A DNA stretch of 64,000 nt, taken from the NCBI GenBank assembly GCA_963833095.1, contig CAWHWQ010000008.1, forward strand, positions 64,001-128,000, written 5' to 3'. The translations under genes and the position numbers were made by a program. Of the stretch, positions 5,002-8,837 are shown one piece after another. Below the pieces are notes generated by a model. The model saw only the letters and a program-made list of their open reading frames with translations. It searched no databases and was not told the DNA's origin. The number at the start of each line of letters is the position of its first letter. The stretch's first letter is position 1. The DNA comes from Vulcanimicrobiota bacterium (lineage in GTDB: Bacteria; Vulcanimicrobiota; Vulcanimicrobiia; Vulcanimicrobiales; Vulcanimicrobiaceae).

Positions 5002-5046
5002 GAGCGCTATGCTAGAGCCTTATCGTGGTAACGAAAAGCCGTGGGG

Positions 5047-5060
5047 TTATACCGGTATAA
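5047..5060. promoter_or_regulatory. Perfect 14-bp palindrome, putative operator overlapping TATAAT
   Basis: TTATACCGGTATAA between the divergent SDR and regulator genes. Confidence 0.55.
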
Positions 5061-5905
5061 TGATTAACAGGCAGAGCGCGGTGCCGGAGCAGGAAGAGAA
5101 TCTGCTTGGGAATTTCTTGAAGGATCGCCGCACCAAGCTCGATGCCGCTCGCTTCGGCTATGCGTCGACGAGAAGGCGTACGCCCGGCTTACGGCGCGAA
5201 GAAGTTGCGCAGCGCGCCGGCGTGAGCACCACCTGGTATACGTGGCTGGAGCAAGGGCGCGGCGGAGCACCCTCCGCCGATGTGCTCGAACGACTGGCTG
5301 ATGCGCTCGCGCTGAGCGAGGTCGAGCGCGAGCATCTTTTCTTGCTCGCGCAAAACCGGCCGCCGGAAGTGCGTCATCACGACGTCGAAGCCGTTTCGCC
5401 GCAACTGCAGCGCATTCTCGACGCGATGGAGTATAGCGCCGCGTACATCAAAACAGCGGAATGGGACATCCTTGCTTGGAATCGCGCGGCCACCGTCGTG
5501 TTTCGCGACTTGATGGCGCTTCCGGACGATCAGCGCAATCTCTTGCGCGTGGTCTTCGATCCGCGCGCTCGAGCGGCGATACTCCACTGGGAAAGCGTCG
5601 CACAATTCGTAGTAGCGACATTCCGAACCGAAATTGCGAGAATCGGGGTCTCCGCGCGCGCCAAGGCGCTGATCGATGAGTTACATCTATCGTCCGCGGA
5701 ATTTCGAGCATTGTGGCGCAGCCATGACATCCGCGCGCACGGCGAAGGAACGAAATACATTGCGCATCCGACCGCCGGATTGGTCACCTTCGAATATTCG
5801 GCTTTTGCAATCGACGGTCAACCACAGCTGAGCATGATCGTCTACAACCCGGCGACACCGAAGGATAAAGCCGCCGTTGCAGCGCTCATCGAAGCGCTAC
5901 CGTAA
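5060..5905 (+). CDS. XRE/MmyB-like transcriptional regulator (start 5060 or GTG 5081)
   Basis: RRRTPGLRREEVAQRAGVSTTWYTWLEQGR and a C-terminal MmyB ligand-binding domain. Confidence 0.92.
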   Translation: MINRQSAVPEQEENLLGNFLKDRRTKLDAARFGYASTRRRTPGLRREEVAQRAGVSTTWYTWLEQGRGGAPSADVLERLADALALSEVEREHLFLLAQNRPPEVRHHDVEAVSPQLQRILDAMEYSAAYIKTAEWDILAWNRAATVVFRDLMALPDDQRNLLRVVFDPRARAAILHWESVAQFVVATFRTEIARIGVSARAKALIDELHLSSAEFRALWRSHDIRAHGEGTKYIAHPTAGLVTFEYSAFAIDGQPQLSMIVYNPATPKDKAAVAALIEALP

Positions 5906-5911
5906 CCACCG

Positions 5912-6550
5912 TTACTTACACTTCGTATCGCCGGAGAACATCCCGGCAACACATTCTTCGTTGCGCTGCATCGCTTGGGCCGCGGCGTTAATCTCGTGAT
6001 TCAGCTGGGCCAATGACTGGAGCGTCTCACTTAGCCGCGTCACCGCGCGATCGCGATGGACGCCAAAATCACCGCGCGCTGTTTGCACCTCGTCGCTCAA
6101 CGCAGCGAGCCTCGTCTGATAAGCACGCATTGCTGAGGCCCCCGCTTCGATGGCGCCAAAATTCCAACTCTGCTGGCCGCTTTTTCGCAGCATCCCCATA
6201 TTCATCTGAGGCAGTACCTGCTCGTTCGGCGCGTTGTATTGCGAGGATGCGGATATCGCTTGGAGCGCCTGGTGAAGTTCGTGCAGTGCGGCGCGCATGT
6301 TGTCGCTCGTGCGCTGCAAGCTAGCGTTGACTTGCGTTCCGGCCTGACCTCGAAGGTGAACGGCGATTTCCGAACCGGTCGTCTCGATCTGCCCGCCCAC
6401 TTGAGCGATTTCACTGGTGAGTCGGTCAAAATTTGCGGCATTCGCGGCAGACGCCGCGGGGTCGGTCTTCATGTCCGCCGCGCAAGTCGGCACCGGGACA
6501 AAGAATGCGGCTATGGCCAGCACACCAACGAAAAGATAAAGAGGCTTCAT
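5912..6550 (-). CDS. Signal peptide + CFP-10(EsxB)-like + ESAT-6(EsxA)-like fusion protein
   Basis: ADMKTD..NFDR..RGQAGT..QY..MG followed by QQSWNFGAIEAGASA..AQAM..VAGMF; ATG overlaps the upstream TGA (ATGA). Confidence 0.8.
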   Translation of the reverse strand: MKPLYLFVGVLAIAAFFVPVPTCAADMKTDPAASAANAANFDRLTSEIAQVGGQIETTGSEIAVHLRGQAGTQVNASLQRTSDNMRAALHELHQALQAISASSQYNAPNEQVLPQMNMGMLRKSGQQSWNFGAIEAGASAMRAYQTRLAALSDEVQTARGDFGVHRDRAVTRLSETLQSLAQLNHEINAAAQAMQRNEECVAGMFSGDTKCK

Positions 6551-7581
6551 GCCGCTCGGTTGACCGTAAGGCGCTCGTCGACCAGCGCGACGATTTCGTC
6601 GACGACGTCGGACTGCATGCCTTTTTGCGCGGCGAGCGACTGCACGAGGCGATCGACGCGCTCGATGTTCTTTGCGCCGGCGTAGAGCGCGCGCGCGGCC
6701 GAAGCGGGCTTCACGAGAATGTCGGCGGCGTTTGCGTACTTCTCGAAGGGCACAAGGTCGTCGCGCGAAGCGCCGAGCGCTACGCACAGATCGGCTACCC
6801 AGGCGTACACAGCGCCTGATGCATCGCGATCGCTGTGCACGGCATCGCGGATCGAGCGCGCATCGCCCTTTTGTATGCAGCGATAGTTGCCGGTCATGAG
6901 CATCGCCCATTTCGCCATCGGCACGTAGATCGAGTCGTACACCTTCAGCTTCACCGGAAGGCCGACGGCATCTACGGCCGTTTCGAGATCGCGAAGCATC
7001 TGCGTGCGCGCATCAGATTCAAATCGCGCCGCTTTGAAGTTTGTCGGCAGCGTTACTTGCAGCACGTTGATCGGTTCGTCAGGGGGGCGGAACGCTTGAG
7101 GATCCGGGCTACACACCGTGATGTTTGCCGCGTCAAAGTGCTGCCACACGCTCGGATCGGTATAGCACCGTTCGAGCGCGCTTGCATCGACGCCGGGCAC
7201 GCGCTTGAAATACGGTAGCGGCGGCATATTCATGATCGCCATGCATGCGACGCCGGCTTTAGCGGTTGCGCCCAAGAGCTCGCGTACACCCGGCGATCCG
7301 TACTGCGGCTCTTGCATCGCCAGCACAACGAGATCGTACTTGCTTGGATCGACGTCGTTCGGGCCGGCAGCGCGAAGCGTGCCGGGCGCGTTGCGCGTAT
7401 CGATCTCGACCAATGTCTCGCGCCCTTTGACCGGAACCCGGAGCACCACGCCGTCGCGATTGATCGCCTCCACTTCGGTGGGCAGGCACACGAGTGTAAC
7501 GTCCTGGCCGGCAAGCGCCAACTTCGCGCCTAGCAACGAGCCATACGATGCACCAAAGACGAGGACGTTATAACGCTTCAC
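6547..7581 (-). CDS. Ketopantoate-reductase-like (PanE/ApbA N-terminal fold) oxidoreductase
   Basis: VLVFGASYGSLLG...DLVVLAMQEPQY; GTG start at 7581. Confidence 0.7.
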   Translation of the reverse strand: MKRYNVLVFGASYGSLLGAKLALAGQDVTLVCLPTEVEAINRDGVVLRVPVKGRETLVEIDTRNAPGTLRAAGPNDVDPSKYDLVVLAMQEPQYGSPGVRELLGATAKAGVACMAIMNMPPLPYFKRVPGVDASALERCYTDPSVWQHFDAANITVCSPDPQAFRPPDEPINVLQVTLPTNFKAARFESDARTQMLRDLETAVDAVGLPVKLKVYDSIYVPMAKWAMLMTGNYRCIQKGDARSIRDAVHSDRDASGAVYAWVADLCVALGASRDDLVPFEKYANAADILVKPASAARALYAGAKNIERVDRLVQSLAAQKGMQSDVVDEIVALVDERLTVNRAA

Positions 7582-7627
7582 ACGACCCCCAAAAACTTGG
7601 CCTTGGATCTTTGAAAACTTGAAAACG

Positions 7628-7714
7628 TGGTGCCCAGGAAGGGACTCGAACCCCCACGATGTTGCCACCGCCAGCACCTGAAGCTGGTGCGTCTACCAAT
7701 TCCGCCACCTGGGC
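7628..7714 (-). tRNA. tRNA-Leu(CAG)
   Basis: GCCCAGG acceptor stem, CCAGC-TTCAGGT-GCTGG anticodon arm, long variable arm, GGTTCGAGTCC T-loop, encoded CCA. Confidence 0.97.
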
Positions 7715-7843: not shown

Positions 7844-8837
7844 ATGCCCCAACTCAGACTAATCTCGCACGACGAAGCTACCCTTCGGGGCGCGCTTTCG
7901 CTCGCACCTCAAGACAGTGACGATATCCTAGACCCGTACTCGCAGGCGGTGACCACTGCCGCCGAGCGCGTTAGTCCCTCGGTCGTCGCCATCGAAGTCC
8001 ACTCCGGCCGCCATGGCGGTAACGGCTCCGGCTTCGTCTTTACGCCCGACGGTTTCGTCCTCACCAACAGTCACGTCGTTCATGAGGCCGATCACATCTC
8101 GGTCGGATTGCTCGACGGACGGGAACTCTCGGCAACGTTAATCGGCGAGGATCCGCATACCGATCTTGCGGTGCTGCGTGTCGATGCGCCCGAACTCGTA
8201 CCGGCAGCGCTCGGGGATTCGTCGCGCTTGCGCCCCGGGCAACTCGTGGTAGCGGTCGGCAATCCGCTCGGCCTGGCCTATACTGTAACCGCCGGCGTCA
8301 TCAGCGCGCTTGGCCGGTCTCTCCGTTCGCAATCGGGACGACTCATGGACAACATCATTCAAACCGATGCCGCCCTAAATCCCGGGAACTCCGGCGGTCC
8401 GCTGGTGACGTCCAACGGTGAGCGTGATCGGTGTGAACACCGCGGTTATGCCGGGTCAAGGGTTGTGCTTCGCGATCGCGATCAACACCGCGAAGCACAT
8501 TGCCGGACTCTTAATCCGTCACGGCAAAGTGCGGCGCGGCTATTTCGGTATCGCCGGGCAAGACATCACGCTCGCGGCCTCCGCGGCGCGTCGCTTCATG
8601 CTCACCGATCCCCGCGGCGTGTTGGTCGATTCGGTGGAGCCAGGTAGTCCGGCTGATACCGCGCGTTTGCGCGCGGGTGACGTGCTGCTCGCAATCGAAG
8701 GCGAACGCATCGTGGGAGTGGACGATTTGCACAAGCGCCTTACCTCGATCGATCTCAGCCGTCCGTACAAACTCGATATCTTGCGCAAAGGCGAACGTCA
8801 CGCGCCGATAATCTTACCCGTCGAATCACCAGAATGA
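7844..8837 (+). CDS. HtrA/DegP-like serine protease with PDZ domain, no signal peptide (frameshift near 8418)
   Basis: [19 protein letters not shown] catalytic motifs; PDZ in ORF 8418..8837. Confidence 0.92.

Follow-up and report, generated by a model that had tools for sequence, protein, structure and literature searches.

A conserved single-chain EsxB-EsxA-like protein with a Sec-type leader in diderm Eremiobacterota

The 64,000-nucleotide stretch of contig CAWHWQ010000008.1 analysed here (positions 64,001 to 128,000 of the forward strand, hereafter the window) belongs to the assembly GCA_963833095.1 of a Vulcanimicrobiota bacterium and carries, at positions 5912-6550 on the minus strand, a gene whose product joins a homologue of EsxB (CFP-10) and a homologue of EsxA (ESAT-6) in one chain behind a Sec-type leader. 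The gene is conserved and under purifying selection in a family of related sequences, and markers of type VII secretion systems (T7SS) were not found in the carriers tested, which have a diderm background. We consider it likely that the product is a Sec-exported, disulfide-stapled, single-chain derivative of an actinobacterial-type EsxB-EsxA pair, encoded by an accessory and fast-evolving gene of diderm Baltobacteraceae-type hosts without type VII secretion.

WXG100 proteins are regarded as hallmark substrates of type VII secretion and even as parts of its machinery; by the usual account, they have no signal peptide and are exported in the form of folded dimers. The family described here departs from this pattern by its covalently joined pair, its Sec-type leader, the loss of one WXG loop and its maintenance by selection in hosts that have an outer membrane and no type VII genes.

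Homology, fusion and conservation

A 212-aa open reading frame (ORF) with a hydrophobic leader and two Esx-like halves had been proposed for this position in a first-pass annotation made from the DNA letters alone, and it is present exactly as claimed. The coding sequence runs on the minus strand from an ATG at 6550-6548 to a stop codon at 5914-5912 (212 codons plus stop), its N-terminal letters are MKPLYLFVGVLAIAAFFVPVPTCAADMKTD, and its start overlaps the TGA (6549-6547) of an upstream 376-aa ORF in the form ATGA. The leader comprises residues 1-24 (6479-6550), with a lysine at position 2, the hydrophobic core LFVGVLAIAAFFVPVP and the residues T-C-A before the predicted cleavage site. It is followed by an EsxB/CFP-10-like helical hairpin (residues 25-118, 6197-6478) with helices at 31-65 and 68-101 and the former C-terminal tail of EsxB. 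The junction of residues 119-126 (GMLRKSGQ, 6173-6196), disordered in the structural model, stands in place of the esxB stop codon and the intergenic spacer. The EsxA/ESAT-6-like hairpin (residues 127-206, 5933-6172) begins with QSWNFGAIEAGAS, has helices at 131-156 and 165-201 and ends with GMFS, and a C-terminal C-x10-C loop (residues 200-212, 5915-5953) contains Cys200 and Cys211, a putative disulfide.

Searched with phmmer against all sequences of the PDB at E<=10, the whole protein gave five matches, all from Mycobacterium tuberculosis: three EsxB/CFP-10 entries (E 7.5e-7 to 4.6e-6, query residues 21-112) and two ESAT-6 entries (E 5e-4, query residues 126-206). The alignments contain about 28 identities in 89 columns for CFP-10 and 10 identities in the last 20 residues of ESAT-6, in agreement with the earlier hand count of about 30 and 10 of 20. 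With a profile of the family, the PDB matches were led by EsxB (9e-12), ESAT-6 (4e-7) and 4lws_A (7e-5), and the next ranks, at 0.05-0.3, were taken by designed helical proteins and S. aureus EsxA (0.26). Judged by these sequence comparisons, the resemblance to EsxB and ESAT-6 far exceeds generic coiled-coil similarity.

The nearest unfused relatives were found in actinobacterial ESX loci. A profile scan of genome contigs led to loci of Mycobacterium sp. and uncultured Actinomycetota (L015-L019), two of which (L017 and L018) are canonical, with EccB, two FtsK/SpoIIIE ORFs (EccCa/EccCb), PPE, EsxB, EsxA and EccD. In BLASTP, the identity of the window protein to the L017 pair is 33% for EsxB (E 1e-14) and 34% for EsxA (E 2e-9). 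The EsxA alignment contains WNFGAIEAGAS as a stretch without differences and has a 12-residue gap that falls precisely on the WGGSGS turn. In a library of 1.84 billion proteins, the family profile matched 63 proteins at E<=1e-3. The best matches outside the family were EsxB-like proteins of about 100 aa (P0020-P0023, E 8e-11 to 2e-9; the EsxB-like half shows 33% identity to P0020, E 1e-14) and the EsxA-like P0063, P0068 and P0069 (E 2-4e-4), which, where named, carry Mycobacterium or 'WXG100/ESAT-6' annotations. Thus, the PDB searches and the comparison with the L017 pair bear out the earlier assignment of the halves to the ESX-1 type in esxB-esxA order, each half being specifically EsxB- or EsxA-like. 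The suggested comparison with WXG100 profiles gave a mixed result, as the homology stands and the curated models match the N half only, below their cut-offs: PF06013 reaches 18.8 bits against 27.3 and TIGR03930 20.1 bits against 44.85. A precomputed PF06013 match is listed for 2 of 13 homologues.

The fused gene is not restricted to the window. A word-indexed protein search returned 13 clusters of 191-221 aa with 61-100% identity, one of them labelled as a Candidatus Baltobacteraceae metagenome-assembled genome (MAG), and an exhaustive profile search added four divergent leader-bearing members (P0014-P0017, 35-60% identity). Leader, both halves and junction are all conserved in the alignment of the family (A1). 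Among six distinct coding sequences, the ratio of nonsynonymous to synonymous substitution rates (dN/dS, Nei-Gojobori) lies between 0.24 and 0.39 for 14 of the 15 pairs (the sequences of the remaining pair are nearly identical), and it is below 1 for the leader and for each half taken separately. A contig from sequencing run X3 (Logan) is identical to the window over 5700-6567 and thus over the whole ORF. Contigs of runs X1, X2, X3 and X20 bridge the junction at 6173-6196 without a stop codon or frameshift, those of the RNA library X20 stemming from a relative about 90% identical and covering 5702-5976 and 5957-6409. The read support and homologues that had been called for were thus obtained from independent contigs and 16 further family sequences without a stop or frameshift at the junction, and a chimera or frameshift artefact is excluded.

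The fusion evolves faster than housekeeping genes. In the locus L014, the neighbouring ApbA-like gene is 90% identical to that of the window and the fusion 63%. In L028, the most divergent locus placed (its fusion, P0016, is 39% identical), the neighbouring isocitrate dehydrogenase is 77-91% identical to the homologues listed, and 10 of its 15 organism-named matches are Eremiobacteraeota, Baltobacteraceae, Aquilonibacter or Vulcanimicrobiaceae.

The W-x-G motif is absent from both halves, in two different ways. In the N half, the turn between the helices reads H-L-R-G, with the glycine invariant. In the C half, the WXG loop of about 12 residues, including the WGGSGS turn, is deleted and replaced by the nearly invariant ARGDFGVHRDR; the remaining EsxA signature is kept at the N-terminus, where W129 and F131 are invariant, and at the C-terminus with GMFS. 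An HLQG turn also occurs in genuine ESX-locus EsxB proteins (L015/L016 and L029-L034), and on this ground the idea that the tryptophan-to-leucine change of the N half adapted the protein to Sec export was rejected. From the sequences compared, this change is inherited, and only the loss of the EsxA loop is specific to the leader-bearing family. The R-G-D within ARGDFG was considered as an adhesion motif and likewise rejected, since it is not conserved in P0006 or in P0015-P0017. The WXG loop of EsxA is part of the type VII targeting signal, and a C-terminal Y-x-x-x-D/E in EsxB is an export motif. Of the latter, Y105 is invariant in the family; the window protein reads YNAPNE (+4 N, +5 E), and the two divergent members P0015 (YRPAD) and P0017 (YQPID) retain YxxxD.

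A single-chain four-helix bundle had been postulated, and AlphaFold2 predicts such a fold on alignment A1, with a mean predicted local distance difference test (pLDDT) score of 77, a predicted template modelling (pTM) score of 0.71 and helices at residues 31-65, 68-101, 131-156 and 165-201. Residues 1-27 (pLDDT <50) and 119-126 are disordered in the model, and both halves have the WXG100-type helical-hairpin layout of about 100 residues. In the EsxB/EsxA heterodimer, two hairpins are packed antiparallel; the cross-over topology seen in the best structural matches is what such a packing of two hairpins would need. Foldseek found no match in the PDB at E<=1e-3 and returned just generic four-helix bundles (Dps, designed maquettes), and the best score in a search of the ESM Atlas was 0.83, below 0.9 and no more than a lead. 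A wide search with VIA-align gave cross-over four-helix bundles, namely 3hiu_A (Z 11.0), Dps/ferritin-like proteins (Z 9-10) and EspB (Z 8.9). All of these lie within helical-bundle noise, and no function was drawn from them.

Leader, cysteines and the case for export

Leader features and the cleavage site were judged by hand from the 17 family members, the leader-bearing fusion P0056 described below, and alignment A1. All 17 members show the n-h-c layout of a Sec-type leader. The n-region is basic except in P0013 and P0017, where K and R are missing ahead of the hydrophobic stretch; this stretch comprises about 14-16 residues, with a 12-residue hydropathy maximum of 2.1-3.1, and is followed by a proline. 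Small residues occupy positions -3 and -1 in 17 of 17 members (ARA, ARS, ART, AGA, TRA, TCA, VAA), the window protein having T-C-A and most relatives A-R-A. After the predicted cleavage, the chain would start with A-[DE]-M-K-T-D, at the same point as CFP-10. On these features, the earlier call of a Sec-type signal peptide was upheld.

The cysteines of the mature region come in two pairs. Cys32, where helix 1 begins, and Cys104, shortly behind the end of helix 2, are both present in 11 of 17 members and both absent from the other 6; the same numbers apply to Cys200 and Cys211 in the C-terminal loop, never one of them occurring alone. An extra Cys52 in P0006 is the sole exception to even cysteine numbers. 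Such co-varying pairs suggest disulfides and hence an oxidising compartment, so that the cysteine pattern fits export of the mature protein. Some members (L008/L014 and P0011-P0013) end at ...N-[NT]-E-R or shortly before it; L008/L014 have a TGA where Cys200 would be encoded, and these are natural variants without the whole C-terminal C-x10-C loop.

A different reading of the same segment is an uncleaved signal anchor, by which the bundle would be tethered to the inner membrane facing the periplasm, or would even remain cytoplasmic. The T-C-A of the window leader, unlike the classical A-x-A, would allow this, as would a leader read by hand and a fold model that is uninformative on residues 1-27. 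It is opposed by the shortness of the hydrophobic core, by the proline and the small -3/-1 residues that follow in every member, by the match between the predicted mature N-terminus and the native N-terminus of EsxB, and by paired cysteines that fit an oxidising compartment. We therefore regard a signal anchor as improbable, if still the best of the alternatives, and favour a cleavable leader.

Origin of the fusion, host and genomic setting

The arrangement of unfused pairs suggests how the fusion could have arisen. Of five actinobacterial genome loci, four have esxB and esxA in a common reading frame, with a single stop codon and a conserved spacer of 13-20 codons between the two genes, and 12 of the 16 unfused metagenome loci that were translated also have both genes in one frame with a single stop; 19 of 24 metagenome loci were translated, the 5 omitted having short N-terminal matches, and several loci are near-duplicates. 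For such a pair, the loss of one stop codon is sufficient for fusion. The same-frame loci (L015, L016, L018 and L019; L029-L039 and L049) are environmental Mycobacterium/Actinomycetota ESX loci.

Other natural fusions exist in the sequence collections. P0037 (206 aa), P0041 (185 aa) and P0076 (205 aa) are leaderless; P0056 (240 aa) bears a leader and represents a 14-member cluster whose named members are Myxococcales/Polyangiaceae. The P0056 cluster has kept the WGGSGS loop of EsxA and has a cysteine after the hydrophobic stretch, and P0056 is possibly a lipoprotein. The comparison of fusions leaves out P0024, which is a frameshifted read-through of a mycobacterial pair, the artificial P0019 and P0026, and four long multi-stretch matches (P0025, P0031, P0033, P0050). 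The tree of the N half (64 rows by 99 columns, built with the quick method of IQ-TREE, six short rows having been dropped) is unrooted and of low resolution. It groups the 17 leader-bearing sequences in a single clade (Shimodaira-Hasegawa approximate likelihood ratio test 99, stem 0.71) and places the other fusions elsewhere. The halves of the family also score higher against unfused single proteins (60 and 57) than against the other fusions (20-29). Clade and scores together point to one fusion event for the family and separate events elsewhere, and P0037, P0041, P0076 and P0056 are thus probably independent of it.

A fused EsxB-EsxA protein with a Sec leader is therefore not unique, since leaderless fusions and a leader-bearing Myxococcota lineage exist. 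The first-pass annotation had known of no natural equivalent; this holds for the literature searched and fails for the sequence collections, which contain the four proteins just named. No description of a fused or Sec-leader-bearing natural EsxB-EsxA protein was found in the open literature, a coverage outside which subscription journals fall, and the accessible portions of a paper on T7SS diversity (PMC11217815) describe no such proteins.

Two groups of side products emerged from the 63 profile matches. Thirteen proteins of 207-313 aa in total (P0027, P0032, P0040, P0043-P0045, P0048, P0049, P0051, P0052, P0060, P0065 and P0067) combine an EsxB-like N-terminal domain with a long variable C-terminal region, a layout that, by sequence, resembles polymorphic-toxin architecture. 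Public protein collections also contain artificial constructs that may contaminate the results when natural fusions are sought by homology: P0019 is an ESAT-6 triple repeat behind a eukaryotic-type leader, and P0026 is an antigen-85-like protein into which two copies of ESAT-6 were inserted.

The host had been taken for a non-actinobacterial organism, and carrier names, BamA and LpxC identify it as a diderm, Baltobacteraceae-type member of the Eremiobacterota. The named carriers are Candidatus Eremiobacteraeota MAGs (L010, L012, L013, L014). Within a sample of 401 genomes of the phylum, the family occurs in 6 of 18 genomes of the window's genus and in none of the 383 others. The genome of the window itself comprises 2.8 Mb in 8 contigs, is 80.7% complete and has one copy of the fusion. 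Runs X5-X19 had only small word shares, and no habitat is claimed on their basis. Omp85/BamA is encoded in all five congeners and LpxC in the window genome. A lipopolysaccharide outer membrane has been reported for a cultured Baltobacteraceae relative, in the part of that source available (PMC9758169), and the available part of another describes WPS-2 genomes as diderm (PMC6664022). One locus, L011 (DATKPZ010000229.1), is labelled 'Alphaproteobacteria bacterium'; its fusion gene is identical to that of G383, a genome placed in the window's genus, its flanks share synteny with the window, and an error of binning or naming probably explains the public label.

The distribution among Actinomycetota and Eremiobacterota suggests a transfer from the former. 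Vertical descent from an ancient Eremiobacterota/Terrabacteria WXG100 pair, lost in most lineages and without any transfer, would be the alternative. Canonical WXG100 proteins above the Pfam cut-off do occur in 4 of 201 phylum genomes (G076, G104, G084 and G082, loci L020-L023; some of these genomes reach about 8 Mb), and an unrooted tree with the family on a long stem of 0.71 would leave room for such a history. Against this, the four genomes all belong to other families, with 0 of 113 in the host family, and the family profile has no match in them at E<=1e-3; the fusion is confined to one genus of the sample, in which it behaves as a unit that is present, absent or relocated; and the nearest relatives of both halves are EsxB and EsxA of Mycobacterium/Actinomycetota ESX loci. 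Vertical descent is accordingly given a small probability, slightly below that of a signal anchor, and acquisition from Actinomycetota is preferred. In the original proposal of an actinobacterial pair that was acquired, fused and re-routed to Sec export, homology and fusion have proved correct; the direction of transfer and the export are what we infer.

The absence of type VII genes, first noted for the window, extends to the carrier genomes tested, in which EccC/EssC-type, EccB and YukD genes were not found. The window genome has one FtsK/SpoIIIE place, with a 509-aa ORF, and exactly one such place (ORFs of 532-759 aa) was detected in each of five congeners, including the carrier G202, which is a single contig. 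None of five carriers yielded a YukD or EccB match, and control genomes were positive; the completeness of the genomes in these tests is 68-93%. No further WXG100 protein was found in the window genome. Nevertheless, an unrecognised type VII-like or other dedicated system might secrete the protein, the leader-like segment serving elsewhere. The invariant Y105, the YxxxD of P0015 and P0017 and the incomplete window genome are in its favour; its probability is very low in the face of the single-contig G202 and four other genomes with one FtsK-sized FtsK/SpoIIIE gene and no YukD or EccB, of the deleted EsxA WXG loop, and of the lack of a secretion gene near any copy. The database labels of the fused proteins, 'WXG100 family type VII secretion target', 'YukE' or 'hypothetical', should be read with this in mind: the first of them is applied in genomes without such a system.

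The locus is that of an accessory gene. The fusion is part of a 654-bp unit (5895-6548) that is collinear in all loci and present, absent or relocated among relatives. In L010 and L013 the unit lies on the other side of the ApbA-like gene, and in contigs of runs X1 and X2 position 5896 is connected to 6552, 655 bp being replaced by 21 different letters, which represents an empty site at the position of the fusion in the window. Upstream in the window, an ApbA/PanE-like oxidoreductase gene (6547-7590, minus strand) has the stop codon that overlaps the fusion start. This linkage is kept in L014, where the gene ends at the start of the fusion, and not in L010-L013, and in L011 and L012 genes of the short-chain dehydrogenase/reductase (SDR) and TetR types stand beside the fusion instead. 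On the other side, an MmyB-like helix-turn-helix regulator gene (5045-5905, plus strand) is a convergent neighbour and no conserved partner. Across loci the neighbours vary (ApbA-like, SDR, TetR, TelA, MmyB-like, PilZ, major facilitator superfamily, DUF302, pectate-lyase-like), and the flanks are syntenic Eremiobacterota genes. A scan of the neighbouring ORFs found no secretion gene adjoining any fusion copy. Neither an operon nor a mobile element is claimed, no integrase or transposase being found among the ORFs scanned.

A tRNA-Leu(CAG) gene (7628-7714, minus strand) borders the variable neighbourhood, and the site is a variable region next to a tRNA gene. The tRNA is 100% identical in the window and L010, and L010 (4024-8000) has about 3.5 kb of extra DNA between tRNA and fusion, with pectate-lyase-like and Vgb-lyase-like fragments. 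Beyond it, a DegP/HtrA-like protease gene (Trypsin_2 and PDZ; 7844-8837, plus strand) is split over the overlapping frames 7844-8647 and 8418-8837, the orthologues in relatives being longer (330 aa in L010, 360 aa in L012), and LpxC of the window genome (G000:C8:211433-212194) contains two in-frame TGA codons; both cases suggest assembly indel errors or pseudogenes. Such probable errors elsewhere, and the existence of the read-through P0024 in the collections, are all that speaks for an assembly chimera, a frameshift read-through, actinobacterial contamination or chance coiled-coil similarity as the source of the fusion, an explanation that is next to impossible given that the fusion is found intact in five congeneric genomes, additional metagenome loci and contigs of independent runs, that its flanks are syntenic Eremiobacterota genes, that both halves are under purifying selection and that the PDB matches are specific to EsxB and EsxA.

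Proposed explanation and comparison with known systems

The observations can be combined into the following scenario. An ancestral actinobacterial ESX-type esxB-esxA pair, with both genes in the same frame and one stop codon between them, would have been fused by loss of the stop, and the fusion would have gained a leader. It would now reside in diderm Baltobacteraceae-type Eremiobacterota without type VII machinery, where the pre-protein with its cleavable Sec-type leader would be exported by Sec to the periplasm and possibly further. The mature chain may be stapled by one or two disulfides, and its intramolecular four-helix bundle would stand in for the EsxB-EsxA heterodimer, with the WXG loop of the EsxA half deleted.

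Several points weigh against this scenario or narrow its support. Export and cleavage are predicted by hand analysis of the leaders. Genuine actinobacterial EsxB shares the N-half replacement of WXG by HLxG, which is thus no evidence of re-routing, and the invariant Y105 together with the YxxxD of P0015 and P0017 suggests that some type VII-like features persist. All fold matches have Z <= 11, under the noise level of about 13 for helical bundles. An unrooted tree of 99 columns does not demonstrate nesting within Actinomycetota, and a few distant members of the phylum (4 of 201 genomes) do carry canonical WXG100 proteins. Omp85/BamA was not found in the window's own genome, at its completeness of 80.7%. 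The loci share no conserved partner gene, so that the neighbours give no functional support, and a contig from the RNA library X20 does not prove transcription.

As to the biochemical role, the gene is fast-evolving and dispensable, like an accessory, environment-facing factor. The first-pass annotation had suggested an effector, a decoy or a structural protein as possible roles. By analogy, the product might be an extracytoplasmic helical bundle that binds a membrane or envelope partner, a suggestion we put forward tentatively and with doubt; Esx dimers that are membrane-active are known from EsxEF, as far as the available part of the source goes (PMC7810871). Far more speculative, and in our estimation quite unlikely, is the idea that diderm soil bacteria of two or more phyla (Eremiobacterota and Myxococcota) independently captured actinobacterial pairs and turned them into Sec-exported single-chain bundles for inter-phylum conflict with actinobacteria. 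Under that idea, one possibility would be a mimic that sequesters or misdirects incoming Esx-domain proteins or toxins, and another a self-sufficient membrane-active Esx effector without a type VII machine.

Because selection maintains the family in genomes that lack type VII genes, the Esx four-helix bundle appears to be useful independently of its part in the secretion machine. The family thus offers a natural single-chain scaffold from a non-pathogen on which membrane and partner binding of the Esx bundle can be studied without a T7SS, and an example of a specialised secretion substrate that was apparently re-routed to the general pathway.

Among the closest known systems is the EsxB/EsxA heterodimer of M. 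tuberculosis (1wa8, 3fav, 6j19). Both halves are homologous to it and stand in the same operon order, the mature N-terminus (ADMKTD...) and the C-terminus (...GMFS) of the window protein align with those of the two mycobacterial proteins, and the fold of two helical hairpins forming a four-helix bundle is the same, for the window protein as a model. In contrast to the mycobacterial pair, the window protein consists of a single chain (about 188 residues when mature), bears a Sec-type leader and added paired cysteines, lacks about 12 residues including the EsxA WXG loop, is only about 30% identical, and belongs to a diderm host without T7SS markers.

The nearest unfused relatives are the environmental ESX-locus pairs (L015-L019, L029-L039; P0020 and P0021). 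They reach N-half hidden Markov model scores of 60 and 57, share the WNFGAIEAGAS stretch in L017 and in some cases the HLQG turn, and they often lie in one frame; they differ in being two genes amid EccB, EccC, PPE and EccD (L017, L018), without a leader and with an intact EsxA WXG loop. The natural fusions P0037, P0041, P0076 and P0056 have the same single-chain domain order, and P0056 resembles the window protein also in its leader and its diderm phylum. Unlike the window protein, they keep the WGGSGS loop; they are 25-26% identical to it and fall outside the 17-member clade. With the WXG100 superfamily at large (PF06013; TIGR03930), the hairpin architecture is common and the N half gives a sub-threshold match, but the window protein has no W-x-G, bears a leader and has no FtsK/SpoIIIE secretion ATPase as partner.

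EspB of M. tuberculosis is a single-chain PE/PPE-like type VII substrate, in which a normally heterodimeric bundle is formed on one chain. Its structural match to the window protein (6xzc) is weak (Z 8.9 over 153 residues, root-mean-square deviation 4.0), a Z value within helical-bundle noise, and EspB, a member of another subfamily, requires type VII secretion and lacks a Sec leader. Finally, fusions of CFP-10 and ESAT-6 exist as diagnostic and vaccine proteins. These artificial CFP-10/ESAT-6 chains and ESAT-6 multimers (P0019, P0026) are likewise single chains, some with a eukaryotic leader. They are engineered and near-identical to the M. tuberculosis proteins, whereas the family of the window is about 30% identical, resides in syntenic MAG DNA and evolves under purifying selection.

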